Of a stretch of DNA of 64,000 nt, positions 1 through 28,743 are shown in pieces. The stretch is from the NCBI GenBank assembly GCA_977017645.1, contig OZ360230.1:74090001-74154000 (forward strand), read 5' to 3'. Source of the stretch: Torpedo marmorata (Eukaryota). Positions within the stretch are counted from its first letter, which is position 1; the number at the start of each line of letters is the position of its first letter. The notes beneath the pieces were generated by a model that was given only the letters and a program-made list of their open reading frames with translations, ran no database searches and had not been told where the DNA came from. The position numbers and the translations under genes are program-made.

Positions 1-3000
1 GTGTCGAGGTGAACTGTGCCCCTCTGTCCGAAGTTATGTTCGTTGGCAGCCCGAAACGGGCTATCCAATTGGCGATGAAGGCCCTGGCGTAGGATGTCAC
101 AGATGTGTCCGAGAGTGGTACCGCCTCTGGCCATCTGGTAAACCTGTCAACCATAGTGAACAGGTACATGGCGCCTCTGGAGATCGGCAGGGGACCAACG
201 ATGTCGACGTGCAAGTGGTCGAAACGCCTGTGCATTGGGGGAAACGACTGGAGCGGAGCTTTGATGTGCCTCTGAATCTTGGAGGCCTGGCAGTGTACGC
301 AAGTTCTGGCCCAATGGCCGACCTGTGTACTCAGGCCGTGCCACATAAACTTGTCGGCGACCAGCTGCATCGTAGCACGTATGGATGGGTGCGCTAAGCC
401 ATGAATGGCGTCGAAAACACGACGCCTCCAAGCGACGGGTACGATGGGTCTTGGCTGTCCGGTGGATATGTCGCAGAGAAGCGTAGCCCCGGAAGGTCCA
501 AGCCTCACGACCTCCAGTTTGAGCCCCAAAATGGCGGTACGGAAGGGCGGTATCTTGGCGTCCTGCAGCTGCGCTACTGCCAGAGCGGTGTAGTCGATCC
601 CAGGAGCCAAAGGGCTGATCGATTGAATGGACGTACAGGAGAGTGCGTCTGCCACGAGATTGCCCTTGCCTGCAATGTGCCTGATGGTAGTGGTGTATTC
701 CGAGATGTAGGAGAGATGTCTCTGTTGTCTTGCGGACCACGGATCTGACCTCTTAGCAAAGGCGAATGTCAGGGGCTTGTGGTCCGTGAAAACGGTGAAA
801 TCCCTCCCTTCCAGGAAATACCAGAAATGGCGGATGGCAAGGTAAAGGGCCAAGAGTTCTCGGTCGAACGCACTGTATTTCTGCTCCGGCGGCCTCAACT
901 GCCGACTCAAAAAGGCAAGTGGCTTCCAACGCCCATCGACCAGCTGCTCCAGGACACCTCCTACGACCATGAGGTCCATGGGCACGTTGACTCATGGGTG
1001 CACAAGCATGGTGGCATTGGCCAATGCATCTTTCGCTTTGTCAAAAGCTGCTGTGGCGTCCTCGTTCTACTCCAAGTCCTTGGGCTGGCCGGAAAGTAGT
1101 TTGAAGAGCGGCTGCATGATCCTGGCTGCCGCTGGTAGAAAGCGATGGTAGAAATTTACCATGCCTACAAATTGCTGCAGGCCCTTAACTGTGGATGGCC
1201 GGGCGAACCTGCGTATAGCTTCCACCTTGGAAGGAAGCGGCACTGCCCCATGCTGGTCAATGCGGTGCCCGAGGGAATCGATGGTTGTAAGCCCGATCTG
1301 GCATTTAGCAGGATTGACAGCTAGTCCGTATTCACGAAGGCTCTGGCAGAGCTGGCGCAGGTGCGTGCTGTGCTCCTGCCGGGAGCGGCTGGCAATAAAA
1401 ATATCATCCAGATAGATGAACACGAAGTCCAAGCCGCGGCCTACTGAGTCCATTAGCCTCGGGAAGGTTTGCGCCGCATTCTTTAACCCAAAGGATATAC
1501 GCAGGAACTCGAAAAGCCCAAAAGGAGTGATGAGCGCTGTTTTTGGGACGTCGTTGGGGTGCACCAGGATCTGATGGTATCCCCTAACCAGATCGATTTT
1601 CGAAAAAATCTTTGCATCGTGAAGGTTGGCGGTGAAATTCTGGATATGGGGAACCGGGTATCTGTCTGCCGTCGTGACGTAGTTGATACGGCAATAATCA
1701 CCACAAGGTCTCCAGCCACCAGATGCCTTGGGTTCCATGTGCAGGGGGGATGCCCATGGACTGTCGGAGCGTCGTACTATCCCCATTTCTTCCATTTTGC
1801 GGAACTCCTCCTTGGCAAGCTGCAGCTTGTCAGGGGGCAGCCTGCAGGCCCGGGTGTGTACAGGTGGTCCCTTTGTGAGGATGTGGTGCTGGACGCCATG
1901 CTTCGGCATGACTGATGAGAATTGGGGAATGACTATGCTCGGAAACTCCGCTAAGATCTTGGCGTAAGCGTCGTGAGAGAAAGTCACCGAATCGAGGTGA
2001 GGTGCCGGAAGAGTGACCTGGTATAGGGCGAGGGACTGGAAGGTCTTAGAATTCACTAAGCGGCATCCTTTCAGGTCCACGCGAGGCAGTGGGCTCGGAG
2101 GAAGTCTGCTCCCAGCAAGGGTTGCGATACGTCTGCCAGTGTGAAGGTCCATGTAAACCGGCCGGGGCCTAATTCCAGAGGGATGGTCTGCACTCCGTAT
2201 GTTCGGATATTGCTGCCATTAGCCACAGTGCGGCAAGACCCGGTCTTTCCCGCACGAGTGTCCCAGCTCATGGGAGGCAACACGCTGATCTCTGCTCCCG
2301 TGTCGACCAGGAAACGCCGACCGGAATGCCAGTCCCAAAGATAGAGCAGGTTGTATTTGCGGCCAACCATCGTAGTCATCAACGACGGCCGGCCGAGGCA
2401 TTTCCCGGATGCGAGCAAGGTGGTCGGCAGCGGAACCCCAGCGCTGATGGTAGTAGCACCACCGTTCCTTGTCCGAGCTGTCCCCAGCTGTGTTAGGCTT
2501 TCTCTCCGGCACTGGGATAGTACGACAACCCGGTCGATGGTTGCTCTGCCATATTGATTGGCCTGTGATGCAGCAACGTAGTCAATGGCAGGTCCGCCAT
2601 CTCGCTTAGCCTGCCATAGGGCGTCGGCTAGGGCCGTCACCCTGCGAGGGTCGCCGAAGTCGTCGTCGGCCAGGAGCAGGCGAATGTCCTCCGGCATCCG
2701 TTCTAGGAATATCTGCTCAAACAGCAGGCAGGGTTTGTGACCGTCCATCAGCGCCAGCATGTCGCTCATGAGAGCGGATGGTGTGTGGTCGCCCAGGCCA
2801 TCCATATGCAGCAGCCGCGCTGCTCGCTTGCGGCGGGAGAGCCCGAAAGTGTGTATGATGAGCGCTTTGAGTTCCTCATACCTGATTTCGGTGGGGGGCT
2901 GCTGCAGGAAATCGACAATCCTGCCGGCGGTCTCCTGGTCCAGAGAACTGACCACGTAATAGTATTTTGTGGCGTCAGCGGTGATTTGCCTAACCTGAAA

Positions 3001-3085
3001 CTGAGCCTCAGCCTGCTGGGACCAGACAACAGGCTGTGAGGTCCAGAGTGTAGGCTGCTTCAAGGAGACTGCGTTAGCATCGTTC

Positions 3086-3103
3086 ATCACGTCGGGGTCA
3101 CCA
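3086..3103 (-). promoter_or_regulatory. Primer-binding site complementary to the tRNA-Trp 3' end
   Basis: Minus strand reads TGGTGACCCCGACGTGAT, the reverse complement of the eukaryotic tRNA-Trp 3' terminus ATCACGTCGGGGTCACCA. Confidence 0.9.
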
Positions 3104-3106
3104 AAA

Positions 3107-3341
3107 TGTAGCGAACCAAGACACGGTAGTCCTTGTGAGGCGGTTTAACTCCACGTTTTATTGGCACTCTCTGGTGTATATTTCAAGCACAAAAACCCCC
3201 AAGATCCTTTGCGGCCCCCAGGACCATTGTGACGTCAGCCTGGAGGTCTGATAACGCTCCCAGTGTCTCGGGGCTCTCAGCCCCGCGCGAGCCTGCACCT
3301 CCGTGACCCAGTTCGCTTGCGGATCGGCGCAGCCTGCTACA
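3107..3341 (-). repeat. 5' LTR of Gypsy element 1 (235 bp)
   Basis: Terminal inverted TGTAGC...GCTACA; AATAAA on the minus strand near 3157-3162; lies 3 nt from the PBS. Confidence 0.9.
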
Positions 3342-7337: not shown

Positions 7338-8869
7338 TGACCCCCCCAGAACCGGTGCTACAGTTCATAGTGTCCGTGGATGCAGTCCCCAATGTCTTTG
7401 GTGGTCTGCCTCTGCGCCAAGGTGCTGGCATCTCCACGGGTTGTGTCGGGTCCGTGTGTGCCAGCTTGAGCCTGTCTGCGGTGAAGACCTCTGGTTTGCC
7501 ATCGATGTCCAGTTCGAAGGTGGCCCCGTTGTTCCGGTCGACTTGGAAGGGGCCTTCATAGGGCTTCTGTAGCAGTGGACGGTGTGGCCCTCTGCATACG
7601 AATACATACTCACAGTCTTGGAGTTCTTAAGGGATGTTGAACTTGGCTTGCCCATGTCTGGAGGGTAGGATCGGAGCCAGGTTACTGACCTTTTCCCGCA
7701 GCCTGTCCAGGAAGGTGGTTGTATCCTCCTGTTGACCTCTGGCCGGTGGGACGAAATCCCCGGGGACCATGAGTGGAGCTCCGTAGACGAGCTCGGCAGT
7801 TCGTCAACCCAGTTGGGGCCCTTGAGTCTGGTCATAAGGGCGGCCTTGAGGTACCTGTGGAAGCGCTCAACCAGCCCGTTAGACTGCAGGTGGTATGCTG
7901 ACGTGTGGTGTAGCTGAGCGCCCCACAGGTTGGCAATGTCGGTCCATAGGCTGGAGGTAAATTGTGTGTCTCTGTCGGAGGTTATGTGGCATGGTAGCCT
8001 GAACCTTGCTACCCAGGATGAGATGAGTGCCTTAGTGCAGGACCTGGTGGATGTGTCGGCCAGGGGGATTGTTTCTGGCCACCGGGTGAAACGGTCAACC
8101 ACCGAGAACAGGTAGCAGAAACCCTGAGAGACTGGTAAGGGTCCCACTATGTCCACATGAATGTGGTCAAACCTTCGCTCCATTGGCTTGAAAGGCTGCG
8201 GGGGGACATTGGTGTGCCTCTGTACCTTGGCTGTTTGGCACTGTGTGCATGTCTTGGCCCATCCGCTGACTTGATTCCGCAATCCATGCCACGCGTACTT
8301 GCTGGCCACCAACCAGACCGTGGTCCTGATTGATGGATGTGCCAGCCCGTGGATGGAGTCGAAAACTCGTCGCCTCCATGCCATTGGGACGATAGGTCGA
8401 ACCTGCCCGGTGGCCATGTCGCACAGGAGGGTAGTGTTACCTGTGTCGACTGGGATGTCCTGAGGCTGCAGCCCCGTGACGGCAGTCCTGTACTGAGGCA
8501 TCTCGTCATCCTGCTGCTGTGCCTCCGCCAGTGCCACGAAATCCAGTCCGTTAGCCAGAGCGTGGATGCTCTGTCTCGACAAGGCGTCCGCGACCACGTT
8601 GTCTTTTCCCGAGATGTGCCTTACGTCGGTGGTGTACTCCGAGACGTAAGACAAGTGTCTCTGCTGGCGGGCTGACCAGGGATCGGAGATCTTGGCCAGG
8701 GAGAATGTCAGTGGCTTGTGGTCTGCGAAAGCTGTGAAAGTCCTTCCCTCTAGGAAGTACCGGAAGTGGTGGATGGCTAAGTACAGCGCCAGTAGCTCTC
8801 TGTCGAAAGCACTGTACTTTAGCTCAGGGGGCCGCAGATGTTTGCTGAAGAAAGCTAGTGGACGCCACA
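6957..8869 (-). mobile_element. Gypsy element 2: RNase H, integrase, PPT and 3' LTR; 5' half missing
   Basis: ORF 7365-8870: WRPLAFFSKHL..YSAFDRELLA (RNase H), HGLAHP..C..C zinc finger, DIVGPLP, SNGLVERFH (integrase). PPT TCTGGGGGGG at 7341-7350. Confidence 0.95.
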
Positions 8870-11800
8870 AACATTACAATATGTTGTGGGACTTGAAACT
8901 TCTTCAGATTCAGAGGATAAGAAGAAAGAGAAGAAAGGAATGATGGAAGAATAAATGGGAGAAATGGAGGGAGAGGCTGAGGATTCAAGTGAAGAAGTGT
9001 TTCCAAAACCGCAAACTCAACAAATGCTTAAAGCTATTTCAAAAATGGAATATCGTTTGGAATTTAGACTTAATGGAATTGAAGAAGAAATTAAAGCTAT
9101 GAAACAAGATATGAAAAGATAGACAAATATTGTGAATACAGTGAAAGCGAAAGTTCAGGAAATTGAAAAAGAAGTTAAAGAACATTGTGAAGAAATGGTG
9201 GATTATAAGGATAGAGTTGATAAAGTAGAAGATTCATTTACAGGTTGGGAACAACAAAGAAATGAACTTTTACAAAAGTTGGATGTATTGGAAAATCTGA
9301 GCCAGAGGAATAATATTAAAATTGTGGGATTACCTGAAAATTTTGAAAACTACGATACGATTGAATTTTTTCAGAAATGGATTTCAGATGTTTTGGGTTT
9401 TGACAATGAACTGGAGTTAGAGAGAGCGCATAGAGTCGGTAGACGGAATCAGTATGCTGGTCAAAGACCACGTTCAGTTTTGGATAAATGTCTTCGGTAT
9501 CCGGACAAAGAGAAAGTATTGAAAGTAGCTATTCAAAAAGCTAAGCTACATAATGGTCCACTGATGGTTCAGGGAAACAGAGTTTTCTTTTATCCTGATT
9601 TGAGTTCAGTTATAGTTAAAAAACATAAAAAATTTAACCCAGCAAAAGTGATTCTTTGGAATAAGGGATATAAGTTTTCCTTTAGATATCCTGCGGTTTT
9701 GAAGGTTCAGTCTGCAGAGAATCAATTTCGTTTTTTTACGGATTGCCAACAAGCGCTCCAATATGCAAATTCTCTTCCGTATTTGAAGAAAGATCAAGAT
9801 TTGATGGATCATCACCAAGTTCAAGAGATTTCACCATCGCAAGTTTCTTTGCCAAGTACTTCAGGAAAAGAGGAGGAGGTTGAGATCGAGATTGATGAAG
9901 ACCAAGTTCATAAGGACCTTGAAGAAGCTAAATGAAGTTATGATAATAAATGTTGTGTAAAATCTGTTGGGGGGCGGACTTTTTGTTTCTCCTTCCTAGC
10001 CACATACCACCTTAGTGGCGAGGGCCACTTCTCGAGTAATGGAGGGGGGTAATACTGGGGTAATTTTGCCAGTATTGTATACATTGGGGTTTTGTTTCTT
10101 TTCTATTTTCTTGTTTTTTCTTTTTCTTTTTAAGGAGATGTCAAATAGATTACGATTCTGGAGGAGGGTGCTGGTAGATTTGATGGAGAGAGACTTAATA
10201 AGATTTAGTAATGATGGATAGTAAAACAATAAATGTAGTAAGCATTAATATAAATGGGCTAAATAACCCGATTAAAAGGAAGAACACTTTAGCGCATATT
10301 AAAAAGTTAAATGTAGACATAGCTTTTTTACAAAAGACACATTTGACAGATTTGGAACATCAGAAGTTGAAAAGAGAATGGGTTGGTCAAGTGGTTGCTT
10401 CTTCATTTAATTCTAAAGCAAGAGGAGTGGCCATATTATTTAATTAAAAGTTACCCTTTAAAATACAATCTGTGATTATAGATGTGGTAGGTAGATATGT
10501 TTTAATACATTGTCAGATATATTCAGAATTGTGGACACTTATGAATATATATGTACCAAATCCGGATGATGAACAATTTATTCAAGATTCTTTTATGCAT
10601 CTGTCAGAAGCTAATGATAATATTTTAATTGATGGGGATTTTAATTGTTGTTTAGATCCGATAATGGATAAAACATCAAGATCAGTTGCTAAATCTAAAA
10701 TTGCCAAAAGAGTTCTTAGTTTGATGAAAGACTTAAATTTAATAGATATTTGGAGAAAATTGAATCCTAGAGAAAAAGATTGGTAGGATAGATATGTCTT
10801 CACAAGTCCAAGATAGAGTAACACAAGCATCTTATAAAGCAAGAATAATTTCTGATCATTTGCCTTTATTAATGTCTTGTATAATTCCAGAAAAAGAGAA
10901 AACTATATATAGGTGGAGATTTAATTCTTCTTTATTAAAAAGAATGGATTTTTGTGATTATATAAGAGAAATACAGGAATTTTTACAAATAAATTCTAAT
11001 TTGACTGATAATAAATTTATTATTTGGGAAGCTTTAAAGGCTTATTTAAGAGGTCAAATAATAAGTTATTCAGCGAAAATTAAGAAGGATTATCTTCGAG
11101 AGGTGGATAATTTGGAGAGGGAGATTGAATGTTTGGAGAAGGACTTGCAAAAAAAGAGATCAGAAGAAAAGAGGAATAATTTAGTTGGAAGAAAATGCAT
11201 TATAATTTGTTACAAACATACAAAATGGAAAAATTAATTGAAATAACTAAACAAAGATATTATGAATTGGGAGAAAGAGCACATAAAGTGTTGGCGTGGC
11301 AATTAAAGAAAGATCAAACTTCTAGAACTATAAATGCTATAAAAAAGAATTCTAAGAAAATAACATATAAACCTCGAGAAATAAATGATTCTTTTAAGGA
11401 TTATTATTTGAATTTATATAAATCTCAGATTGATGAAGATGACTCTAAAATTAATAGATTTTTTATCTAAAATTAAGCTACCTAGATTAAATACTCAAAG
11501 TAAAGAACTTTTGGATTCGTCTTTTTCAATGAGGGAAGTTAATGAGGTTCTTAGTTCTTTAACAAGTGGTAAATCTCCAGGGGAAGATGGTTTCCCATCA
11601 GAGTTTTATAAGGAGTTTAAAGATTTATTAATACCTCCATATGTGGATGTGTTGAAACAAATAACGGAAACTCATTCGTTACCGGAAACATTTTCGAATG
11701 CAATAATTACAGTTGTACCTAAAAAAGATAGAGATGTGTTGAAAACAGAATCATATAGACCAATTTCATTGTTAAATATGGATTATAAGATAATGGCTAA

Positions 11801-15399: not shown

Positions 15400-17451
15400 C
15401 ACTGGACAGCAAAAATTTTGCTTCCTGAATACTTTTGGGTGTATTTTATGGATTATGGGCTGCTGATCACAAAATTCACCTTAAAATTTTCCTATCACGT
15501 ACTGTTTTTTTAAGACATAAAATATGACAGGGATAGTGCCGGAGGATTGGCGTATTGCGCATGTGGTTCCGTTATTTAAAAAGGGTTCAAGGAGGAAGCC
15601 TGGCAATTATCGGCCTGTAAGTTTGATGTCTGTGGTAGGTAAATTAATGGAGAAAGTTCTCAGAGATAGTACTTATAAATATCTGGATAGACAGGGTCTG
15701 ATCAGGAACTCTCAACACGGATTTGTGAGCGGAAGGTCCTGTTTGACCAATCTGATTGAATTTTTTGAAGAGGTGACTAGGAATGTGGATGAGGGTAGCG
15801 CGGTGGATGTTGTCTATATGGACTTCAGTAAGGCCTTCGATAAGGTTCCGCATGGAAGGTTAGTTAGGAAGGTGCAGTCTTTAGGTATAAATTCTGAGAT
15901 AGTCAAATGGATTGAACATTGGCTGGAAGGGAGAGGCCAGAGAGTGGTAGTGGATAATCGTCTGTCAGGTTGGAGGCCCGTGACCAGTGGTGTGCCTCAG
16001 GGATCTGTATTGGGCCTATTGTTGTTCGTTATATATATCAATGATCTAGATGATGGGGTGGTAAACTGGATTAGTAAATATGCAGATGATACTAAGATAG
16101 GTGGAATAGTGGATAATGAAGAAGGTTTTCAAGGATTGCAGAGGGATTTGGGCTGCTTAGAAAAGTGGGCTGAAAAATGGCAGATGGAGTTTAATGCTGA
16201 TAAGTGTGAGGTGCTTCATTTTGGTAAGAAGAATCAGAACAGGACATATGTAGTAAATGGGAGAGCATTGATGAATACAGAAGAGCAGAAAGATTTAGGA
16301 ATAACGGTGCATTGTTCCCTGAAGGTGGAAACTCATGTGAATAGGGTGGTGAAGAAGGCTTTTAGTATGCTGGCCTTTATCAATCATTGCATAGAATATA
16401 GGAGTTGGGAAGTGATGTTGAGATTATATAAGGCTTTAGTGCGGCCTAATTTAGAGTTCTGTGTGCAGTTCTGGTCGCCAAATTATAGGAAGGATATCAA
16501 CAAGGTGGAGAGAGTGCAGAAAAGGTTTACCAGAATGTTACCTGGGTTTAAGAATCTAGAGTACAAGGAGAGATTGAGCATATTAGGTCTTTATTCTTTG
16601 GAGTGTAGAAGGTTGAGAGGGGATTTGATAGAGGTATTTAAAATTATGAAAGGGATAGACAGAGTGGATGTGGATAGACTATTTCCATTAAGAATAGGAG
16701 AGATTGAAACAAGAGGACATGAGCTAAGAGTTAAGGGGCAGAGGTTTAGAGGTAACATGAGGGGGAACTTCTTTACTCAGAGAGTGGTAGCGGTGTGGAA
16801 TGAGCTTCCGGGAGAAGTAGTGGCGGCAGAGTCAATTTTATTATTTAAGAAAAAGTTGGACAAGTATATGGATGAGAAGGAAGTGGAGGGTTATGGGCAG
16901 GGTGCAGGTAGGTGGGACTAGATAGGAATGTTTGGTTCGGTGCGGACTGGAAGGGCCTAATGGCCTGTTTCCGTGCTGTAATTGTTATATGGTTATAAAT
17001 CAAAAAAATAGGATAAGTTGACTTCAAGCATACAAAACCATGAGTGCATCATGTCATTCAAAATTTAAATTTCTGCATTCGCACTTGGACTTCTTCCCTG
17101 CTGATCTTGGTGCAGTCAGTGACGAAAAAGGTGAAAGGTTTCACCAGGACATTGTGACCATGGAAAAGCAGTATCAAGGCAATTGGAATCCATCAATGCT
17201 GGCCGACTGTTGTTGGACACTGACACAAGAGGCATCAGATGCTGGTACAATCTAAAATCAGCAGCAAAACATTTTAGGTCAGTATGCGATTAAACTTGCG
17301 AAATTCAATAGAAGTTAATTTAATGTTTCTCCAACTACCCATGCGATACAGCCAATCTGAAATTATTTTTGTGTTCAGCTTGAAGTTGTCTATCATAATT
17401 CCCAATTTTTTTTCAGGTAGCAAACCTTTTGAAAAAAATTGTTGTCCATTG
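15400..17451 (+). mobile_element. Internally deleted Chapaev3 (CMC superfamily) DNA transposon, interrupted by CR1
   Basis: TIRs CACTGGACAGCAAAA and reverse complement CAATGGACAACAATT; TTA on both flanks. Transposase C-terminus FLHSHLDFFPADLGAVSDEKGERFHQDI.TMEK.YQG.WNPSMLAD.CWTL at 17040-17255. Confidence 0.85.
15524..16997 (+). mobile_element. CR1 LINE, 5'-truncated, with uninterrupted RT ORF
   Basis: 465-aa ORF 15524-16921: NYRPVSL, DFSKAFDKVPH, GVPQGSVLG, YADD, FFTQRVV..WN.LP. 3' tail ggcctgtttccgtgctgta plus short repeats. Confidence 0.95.
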
Positions 17452-25291: not shown

Positions 25292-25379
25292 ATGAGCACG
25301 TTGGCTGGACCGGTCCCAAGAATGATGCGGCCAGCCCCGGGACAGAATTATTCTCGCAGCAGCGGATTCCCACTGGAAG
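25292..25379 (+). CDS. pax3: Paired box protein Pax-3, coding exon 1
   Basis: [29 protein letters not shown] followed by the donor G|GTGAG; matches the PAX3 N-terminus MTTLAGAVPRMMRP.. with one extra Ser; 88 nt. Confidence 0.9.
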
Positions 25380-26227: not shown

Positions 26228-26460
26228 TGTCAACGCCTTTAGGTCAAGGGAGAGTGAACCAGCTCGGAGGAGTTTTTATTAACGGCCGGCCTCTGCCAAA
26301 TCATATCAGGCACAAGATAGTGGAAATGGCCCATCACGGCATCCGACCTTGTGTCATCTCCCGACAGCTGAGGGTCTCCCACGGTTGTGTCTCTAAAATC
26401 CTCTGCAGATACCAGGAGACGGGATCTATCAGGCCAGGGGCGACTGGAAGCAAACCTAGG
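26228..26460 (+). CDS. pax3: Pax-3 exon 2 (paired domain PAI subdomain and linker)
   Basis: TAG acceptor; [78 protein letters not shown]; GTAAGT donor; 233 nt. Confidence 0.95.
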
Positions 26461-27961
26461 GTAAGTACGATCACTCATCAAAAAATCGCATTCTGTATTA
26501 CAACTTGGTTGATGCATCTACCGCGTCATGAAAGACGTTGTTACGGTTTCTCTCCAAAGTACACGGATGGCGCTGCTATCTTTTCAAAGGCTCTCCAAAT
26601 ACAGACAGTTAAATGGACATAAACCACCTGAGGATTGGAGTACTGCATCATTTTTTAAACTGTAAATCAACATCTGCTTTTGCAGATCTGCCCCACTAAC
26701 ATCTGTGGTTACACAGACATGTGCAACACTTAGAAACGCCTGTCATAATCGAGGTACTGAAGACAATTTAAGCGTTATTTACTAATCCATCTCTTATAAA
26801 ATTAACTAAACCTTTATAGCTTCTAGAATATGAAATTTGTCAACGCGGCATTTTAGGGCAGTGTTTTTTAATTCCGTGTATTCTAAGAGTTATATTAGAA
26901 GTTGCACAAATTTTATCAGCTGAAACTATTACTGTTAAGAACTTCCATCAACCAAAAAGCCAAGAATAATAAAACGTCTATCAGCAGCGAAGGTACCTGT
27001 AATAATCGGATTTAATTAGTTAAAATAACCCAAGGAGCAACATAAATAATCGGTTCATAATTTTAATATTTCTAAAAGAGTAAAACTAAATGCAATTTTC
27101 AATTTGGTAAATTAAATGAACTGGATTTATTAAATAATATTTCTTTCATACTGTCTATATTAAATGTGAACATTGTTTAATATTTGCATTGTACACATCC
27201 AGAAACATGAATTAATTACCATTTTGATGTATGATGCTACATATTTAAACATAAGATGAAAGGAAATGTTGAACAATTTAAACGATTTCGGCAAAACCTT
27301 TCTAGGGGAAGGGGTGCTTTTTAGACGTAACTGTAGTTTACCGTTTCGTTTCTATTGGGGATGGCCAATTCTATGTTTATAATGGCAAAACATTATTGCT
27401 TAATTTGTAATTCAATCTTTAATGTTTAATGGTTTTGACACAGACAATTAAACACGCAAACTGTAATGGCCCGCAATTATCGTAATATAGGTCATTAAAC
27501 ACAGGAATTGTACTTCGGTTACTCCGCTTTTTCAATAAACATGACCGCAAAGTTCAAGTACCGATTTGCAGCGAAGTTACCAATCAATAAAACCGATTTT
27601 TTTTTTTTGTCGAGTTTGACTTTCATTTCTGTAAGTCAAATTCATAGCGTGATCAGGAACTATGTTTGCGCTTCCGACTATCATGTCCAAATAAAGTTTT
27701 AAATATTAAATCTGAAAATTATTCCACGCGTTTAATTTTATTTTGTCTGATGCATTCAGCAGGATTTTTCCTATCAAAATTCGTAGAAGGAATTATAATG
27801 TACGCACTTCTGTATCGGGAGTAAATGGAAATTGAGTAGAAATTCCTGCTATATTAGATTTTCAAGGCAGGATATTTCTGCAATTGATTAGTTTACCAGT
27901 TGCAACGAAGAAAAGTTATAAACAAACTTTTGTTCTCTTTGTTGTATCATTTCCAATGAAG

Positions 27962-28091
27962 CAAATGACAATACCAGACGTGGAAAAAAAGATCGAAGAA
28001 TATAAGAAAGAGAATCCTGGAATGTTTAGCTGGGAAATTCGGGATAAGTTATTGAAAGACGGCATGTGTGATCGGAATACCATTCCCTCAG
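27962..28091 (+). CDS. pax3: Pax-3 exon 3 (RED subdomain)
   Basis: Pyrimidine tract and AAG acceptor; [43 protein letters not shown]; donor G|GTTGGT; 130 nt, phase consistent with neighbours. Confidence 0.95.
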
Positions 28092-28608
28092 GTTGGTTCA
28101 ATATTACTGATTTGTGCGAATTGAAATAAAGTCAAATAATATTGTGATTAACATGCAAGCACAACAATTCTTATTTCACTTAAACATGTAATTCGCTGCA
28201 AATATAAATGATATCCAGCTGCATTGCTGATAATAAATGAAACAACAATGCATGGTGTTCACAAATGATTTCAATGCCTCAGATTTGAAAATATTATTTC
28301 TCTGGCCCTTTAACTTATTCGCTGCGCTAATATTGACAACAGTTAGGTCATGACTTCTGTAGTTTAGATTGAGATTCAACATTTGCAGGAATTTGCTTTT
28401 CACGATGTTCTTGATCAAGAATGTGATCTTTCTCTTGAGAGGTGTGACCATGTGATTATTTTTAATGTATAAAAGTAAAATATAATGTCTTCATCCGAAA
28501 TTATAAGTGAAATATTTAACTTCATGTTCTGGATAGTTTACATGAATATAATATTGCACAGAATTTGAAACATTTTGTTCATCTTATTAAACATTTATTT
28601 CAAACAAG

Positions 28609-28743
28609 TGAGTTCAATAAGCCGTATCCTGAGGAGTAAATTCGGAAAGAAAGAAGAGGAAGAGGAAGAGTGTGGAAGAAAAGAATACGAAGATGGCGAT
28701 AAAAAGACCAAGCACAGTATTGACGGGATTCTGGCTGATAAGG
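28609..28743 (+). CDS. pax3: Pax-3 exon 4 (end of paired domain, acidic stretch, octapeptide)
   Basis: AAG acceptor; [45 protein letters not shown]; donor G|GTAAGA; 135 nt. Confidence 0.95.

Follow-up and report, generated by a model that had tools for sequence, protein, structure and literature searches.

The closest described counterpart of the gene analyzed here is the pair of Pax3/Pax7 isoforms, Q+ and Q-, which arise when a tandem splice acceptor includes or skips one Gln codon in the linker between the PAI and RED subdomains of the paired domain. As summarized in the review of these isoforms, Pax3 Q+ and Q- occur at about 2:1 in mouse and 3:2 in zebrafish, Q- binds two-subdomain sites more strongly (Vogan 1996, via the review), and zebrafish Pax7 is reported as Q+ only (PMC5852603). 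For mouse pituitary, the published account gives no Q- Pax7 and a marginal effect of the Gln on Pax7 transcriptomes (PMC10415112). Few parts of the paired domain are as constant as the Gly-Gly linker, and human eye disease results from changes at this place in PAX6. A review of PAX6 describes extensive minor-groove contacts of the linker (PMC4901127), and a saturation scan places residues 71–79 in the 3–4 Å bins from DNA and, in its abstract, presents position 71 as a sequence-specific switch (PMC11219921).

The Pax3 locus of Torpedo marmorata

We analyzed a window of 64,000 nucleotides (positions 74,090,001 to 74,154,000 of contig OZ360230.1, assembly GCA_977017645.1), in which motif scans located four group III Pax exons on the + strand. 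The coding part of exon 1 (25292..25379) carries one residue extra before GFPLE that is common to elasmobranch Pax3; exon 2 (26228..26460) encodes the PAI subdomain and the first half of the linker; exon 3 (27962..28091) encodes the end of the linker and RED helices 4–5; and exon 4 (28609..28743) encodes RED helix 6, the acidic stretch and the octapeptide. All introns are of the GT-AG type, intron 2 opening with a phase 0 gtaagt donor (26461..26466, +), and exons 1–4 join into an open frame of 195 codons. The homeodomain exon is located 2.4 kb past the window end (74156423-74156599 of the contig, C42) and is 100% identical to shark Pax3. The spliced 195 residues are the same as the first 195 of the RefSeq Pax3 of Narcine bancroftii and differ at 4–11 residues from five other shark or ray Pax3 proteins, and all 67 PAI residues (67/67) are identical to those of gar, bird and chimpanzee Pax3.

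A complete paired domain, an octapeptide and a homeodomain are thus found together in one gene, as expected of a group III Pax gene such as Pax3. The homeodomain of the matching RefSeq protein is identical to gar and bird Pax3 at 60/60 residues and differs from catshark Pax7 at 2. In a tree of 17 rows, the Pax7 rows were set apart from the rest by a branch present in 100% of 200 bootstrap replicates (branch support 64/30, with weak deep branches), and a genome search revealed Pax7, on C60, as the one further Pax3/7 locus. Judged by homeodomain residues, the tree and the separate Pax7 locus, the window gene is identified as an intact elasmobranch Pax3 and not Pax7. The possibility of a third Pax3/7 paralog was rejected, as the genome search gave two Pax3/7 loci only.

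Several other features of the locus were recorded. The extra exon 1 residue (window 25349-25363) is present in each of the 10 shark and ray rows aligned and missing from bony Pax3 and Pax7. Upstream of Pax3, long open frames occupy 2-3144 and 7368-8873 on the - strand and 9123-9932 and 15521-16918 on the + strand; we take them to resemble remnants of LTR retrotransposons and LINEs. By eye, the mammalian-Pax7-type acceptor that adds Gly-Leu before exon 4 is absent from both Pax7 (C60) and Pax3 (28575-28608) of this genome. Differences of 2–3 residues before NNSD among elasmobranch proteins point to a short alternative acceptor of exon 5, just beyond the window.

Linker and intron 2 acceptor

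Exon 2 ends in GGG GCG ACT GGA AGC AAA CCT AGG|gtaagt, one codon fewer than in Pax7 of the same genome: Pax3 has GCG ACT GGA AGC where Pax7 has GCT ATT GGA GGC AGC, and the linker reads GATGSKPR vs GAIGGSKPR. At 26443..26448 (+), ACT GGA encodes Thr for Ile68 and, in place of the Gly69-Gly70 of other paired domains, a single Gly, one codon having been deleted; the other derived linker residues, V75M and T77I, are encoded by ATG ACA ATA at 27965..27973 (+). The deletion, accompanied by I68T, V75M and T77I, affects the DNA-contacting Gly pair, and the Gln follows it five residues downstream. With its single Gly, the linker departs from the canonical Ile/Val-Gly-Gly-Ser-Lys-Pro, and it also departs from Q- as defined by the canonical register and the absence of a Gln between K/R74 and V75, for here the Gln is retained and a Gly is missing. 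Two candidate explanations of the exon 2 end were rejected: the origin of ACT by one deletion of 3 bases, as the ATT GGA GGC of Pax7 suggests one transition plus the loss of one codon, and an alternative donor restoring the lost codon, as there is no in-frame GT donor near the exon 2 end.

On the other side of intron 2, positions 27955-27976 read aatgAAG|CAA ATG ACA ATA CCA, with no tandem NAGNAG acceptor at the junction with exon 3. The 3' end of the intron (27916..27961, +) is a 44-base AG-free pyrimidine-rich stretch with a single AAG acceptor at 27959-27961, whose AG (27960-61) is the sole one within 44 bases upstream. The next AG (27978, at the start of the exon) is out of frame, and in-frame alternatives are found 51 bases upstream or at least 30 bases downstream, with weaker pyrimidine tracts. 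The Gln codon, CAA (27962..27964, +), corresponds to a CAG in the Pax7 paralog that forms a second acceptor; the tandem junction in Pax7 of this genome, ttaaag|CAG|GTA, begins with an identical AAG, which suggests that CAG>CAA, a single synonymous transition, is the derived step in Pax3. Given that an AAG acceptor is reported to be weaker than CAG (PMC2699507), AAG|CAG would readily yield the form lacking Gln. We infer from the genomic sequence that splicing in T. marmorata uses the AAG|CAA acceptor. A sequence-only reading of the locus had proposed that the Q+/Q- tandem acceptor is lost, and the comparison of AAG|CAA with AAG|CAG in Pax7 bears this out; its count of a 16-residue linker, the same length as in Q- forms and one below the 17 of Q+, was right on the spliced exons.

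The clustering of changes in the linker was assessed by comparing ten elasmobranch rows with six bony Pax3 rows, three Pax7 rows and one lamprey row. Derived columns amounted to 8/129 in the paired domain and 0/60 in the homeodomain, and 4/8 were at positions 68–77 (I68T, the Gly deletion, V75M and T77I). For four of 8 derived columns to fall within 11 of 189 columns, P = 0.024 on the assumption of equal site rates, one of the 8 being fixed in 5/10 rows only. Within the listed elasmobranch proteins, no PAI column varies (0/67), and variable columns number 1/10 in the linker, 2/51 in RED and 10/22 in the acidic stretch behind the domain; set against the acidic stretch, the new linker looks selected rather than decaying. 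AlphaFold models without DNA have normal PAI and RED helices and a linker pLDDT below 50 in both the skate and the chimpanzee protein, with an rmsd of 12.6–14.9 Å to DNA-bound structures.

Distribution among sharks, skates and rays

Exon 2 is matched at 100% by three protein clusters with 99 members in total; the 26 members listed come from 15 named species of sharks, skates and rays, which we take to span seven orders. The deletion is present in all 26 listed elasmobranch Pax3 proteins (26 of the 99 cluster members), and the Gln in 25/25 of those that reach exon 3, where they read Q-M-A/T-I. In a set of 447 proteins, mostly Pax3/7 and often several isoforms per gene, the motif could be parsed in 437, yielding 27 with a single Gly (the 26 elasmobranch proteins and that of the window) and 410 with Gly-Gly. 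The co-occurrence of the two changes across chondrichthyans, proposed earlier as a check, holds at the protein level as deletion with Gln in 25/25 complete elasmobranch linkers, while at the DNA level CAA is known from this genome and two close relatives, the remaining species being represented by annotated proteins.

Chimaera Pax3 was not found among the best 120 rows of each protein search or the listed cluster members, although it may be among the unlisted members, and the change thus goes back at least to the ancestor of sharks and rays. Nor was an intermediate form, with one change and not the other, found among the sequences compared; either change may have come first.

The Q- form is annotated in 19/75 listed bony-vertebrate Pax3 proteins (a mis-binned lamprey row was removed and 2 rows were unparsed), a weak contrast with elasmobranchs because the rows are not independent and elasmobranch Pax7 is also all Q+. 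The 5/5 elasmobranch Pax7 proteins are Q+ even though the Pax7 tandem acceptor is kept in this genome, so little can be concluded from a lack of Q- annotations. The Gln is absent from amphioxus, tunicate, mollusc and arthropod proteins and present in both lamprey proteins, which makes the Q- length the old one and the Gln a vertebrate addition; amphioxus and insect paired domains have a linker of length 16. Teleost Pax7 proteins retain GAIGG, and V75M also occurs naturally in 4 pipefish Pax3 proteins. Elasmobranch Pax3 sequences with the deletion are already in RefSeq; motif and topic literature searches, the latter by title and opening of the abstract and with subscription journals, old gene-cloning figures and bioRxiv supplements outside their scope, found no paper on the shark-ray Pax3 linker change.

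Possible consequences for DNA recognition

The Pax3 motif aligns to PAX6 Ile71-Gly72-Gly73-Ser74-Lys75-Pro76-Arg77-Val78, for which scores on two sites are reported. For BLX, a site derived by SELEX, the scores of the 19 substitutions at Gly72 run from -1.80 to -2.41 and those of the 19 at Gly73 from -1.93 to -2.45 (PMC11219921, supplement 6), which makes all 38 null-like, comparable to changes that destroy the core in these tables; Ile71Thr scores +1.10 on LE9 and -0.34 on BLX (PMC11219921). When the shark linker is threaded gap-free on Q-, the reported BLX scores of the resulting substitutions are -2.28 for G73S, -1.81 for S74K, -1.53 for K75P, -0.93 for P76R, -1.50 for R77Q, -1.39 for V78M and -0.10 for T80I. 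In the alternative register, with S-K-P-R held fixed, one Gly is missing, the Gln bulges as in Q+ and V78M stays. By this alignment neither register is that of Q-, and in either of them lost consensus-site binding is predicted from the PAX6 scan, a set of single PAX6 substitutions rather than a deletion in Pax3, the transfer of which is imperfect. The same imperfection is evident from V75M, which scores -1.39 on BLX and yet is natural in pipefish Pax3. As for LE9, the reported scores of Pax3's own Gly66 (PAX6 R69G; -1.94 on LE9, +0.13 on BLX) indicate that LE9 scores do not transfer. In the calorimetry reported for PAX6, G72C and G72S lowered affinity only 1.4- and 2.8-fold, and G73D still bound one site and lost another (PMC7046147).

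We give close to an even chance to a length-neutral linker with a shifted register, whose preference for paired-domain sites is altered or weakened, as opposed to a plain copy of Q-. What this reading starts from is observed: the sequence changes themselves, their presence in every listed shark and ray protein, and an unchanged PAI subdomain and homeodomain. One Gly codon is lost, three more linker residues are changed and, in this genome, the second acceptor is gone, with a linker as long as that of Q- as the outcome. The missing Gly would let S-K-P-R move by one position along the DNA minor groove in the direction of PAI, and the retained Gln would take up the space left ahead of RED, such that the ancestral PAI-RED spacing is kept and the central contacts are changed. 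A linker shifted in this way likely prefers different sites or binds canonical paired-domain sites more weakly. CAA may be maintained since skipping of the Gln would now produce a linker of 15 residues, a length found in none of the parsed proteins; removal of CAG prevents this outcome, which would give both changes a reason to persist. The site-dependent loss caused by PAX6 G73D is what a change of preference would predict, whereas the small affinity losses of G72C and G72S, and the marginal effect of the Gln on Pax7 transcriptomes as reported (PMC10415112), count against the register-shift reading.

A change this rare might be suspected to be an assembly error or a feature of a decaying gene copy, beyond which rarity nothing speaks for that explanation, and it is already refuted. 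Contigs of two other samples, from two studies and belonging to close relatives, contain both changes and show no difference at 27955-27993. Over the exon 2 end, one of the matching records (run X7, record 20) aligns with 0 gaps and differs at six places, all of them outside 26443-26448, another (run X1, record 3) has 2 gap letters only and no 3-base insertion, and the sole match of run X2 was a short piece of another Pax gene. The same sequence recurs in 15 species, the frame is open, the homeodomain exon is in place and 100% identical, and just two Pax3/7 loci were found in the genome. As a separate observation, organism C is without 35 and 40 intron bases found in the window at 26573-26609 and 28152-28193. 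If length alone mattered, a protein with the deletion and the fixed Gln would function just as Q- does and bind the same sites fully through PAI and RED; this would agree with the length of 16 shared with Q-, amphioxus and insect paired domains, with the joint occurrence of deletion and Gln in all 25 complete listed proteins, and with the better performance of Q- on two-subdomain sites given in the review (PMC5852603). We regard it as improbable, for what was deleted is a Gly in contact with DNA, PAX6 scores are null-like or strongly negative in both registers, length leaves the three further linker changes unexplained, and zebrafish Pax7 is reported as Q+ only and has no deletion (PMC5852603). 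A product fixed in the Q- form, as proposed earlier, is not supported as it stands, as the missing residue is the contacting Gly and not the Gln, which puts S-K-P-R one place out of register, and three other changes accompany it. Of the related proposal that a compensating genomic deletion replaced the splicing switch, it is supported that both changes are real and the length is that of Q-; the compensation itself is not required, as zebrafish Pax7 reportedly does without Q- and has no such deletion.

Somewhat more credible than a Q- copy, though still unlikely in our estimate, is a loss of linker function, whereby a poor grip on the minor groove would leave RED uncoupled as in Q+ or worse, Pax3 would act mainly via PAI and the homeodomain, and the second splice site would have been lost by drift, with Pax7 supplying canonical binding. 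Every derived linker change except I68T is predicted to be harmful, Pax7 of the same genome has a canonical linker and a tandem acceptor, and CAG>CAA is one synonymous transition in a switch whose loss alone is tolerated elsewhere. The conservation of the linker (1/10 columns variable) and RED (2/51) in the listed sharks and rays is unexpected under such relaxed selection. A broader reading, for which we see a limited chance, is that sharks and rays have rewired DNA recognition by Pax3 through a fixed deletion within the near-invariant Ile-Gly-Gly, which the lost splice switch would have locked in, with a site preference and in part muscle and neural-crest targets that differ from those of Pax7 and bony-vertebrate Pax3. 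Work on fin muscle, in which Pax3 is expressed, takes sharks and skates as proxies of the ancestral jawed vertebrate (review PMC8505881); at the DNA interface, their Pax3 is derived, not ancestral. A whole vertebrate lineage with a linker deletion constitutes a natural experiment in which the length of the linker can be told apart from its sequence, the question that underlies the Q+/Q- effect.

Small changes of paired-domain length are known to alter binding in Pax6(5a) and Pax8(S), which are splice isoforms affecting RED or PAI and not genomic changes of the linker. The same holds for the reported GL+ and GL- isoforms of Pax7, in which a small change of paired-domain length alters binding or pioneer activity by splicing and not by a genomic linker change (PMC10415112). 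I68T has arisen independently in a protein of the killifish Austrofundulus annotated as Pax7 (GATGGSKPR), which, unlike shark Pax3, keeps both glycines; the end of its linker is diverged. The human PAX6 variants I71x, G72C/S and G73D affect the same Ile-Gly-Gly positions, with site-dependent effects as reported (PMC7046147, PMC11219921), and are substitutions from patients or libraries only, whereas the shark-ray change is a deletion fixed in a whole lineage. Zebrafish Pax7 is, by the review's account, likewise without Q-, but its linker is canonical, with 17 residues and no deletion (PMC5852603). With the Q+/Q- isoforms of Pax3 and Pax7 as reviewed, the Pax3 analyzed here shares the junction, the Gln and the total length of Q- (PMC5852603); in contrast to them, it has no splice choice, and the length is regained by loss of an upstream Gly together with I68T, V75M and T77I.
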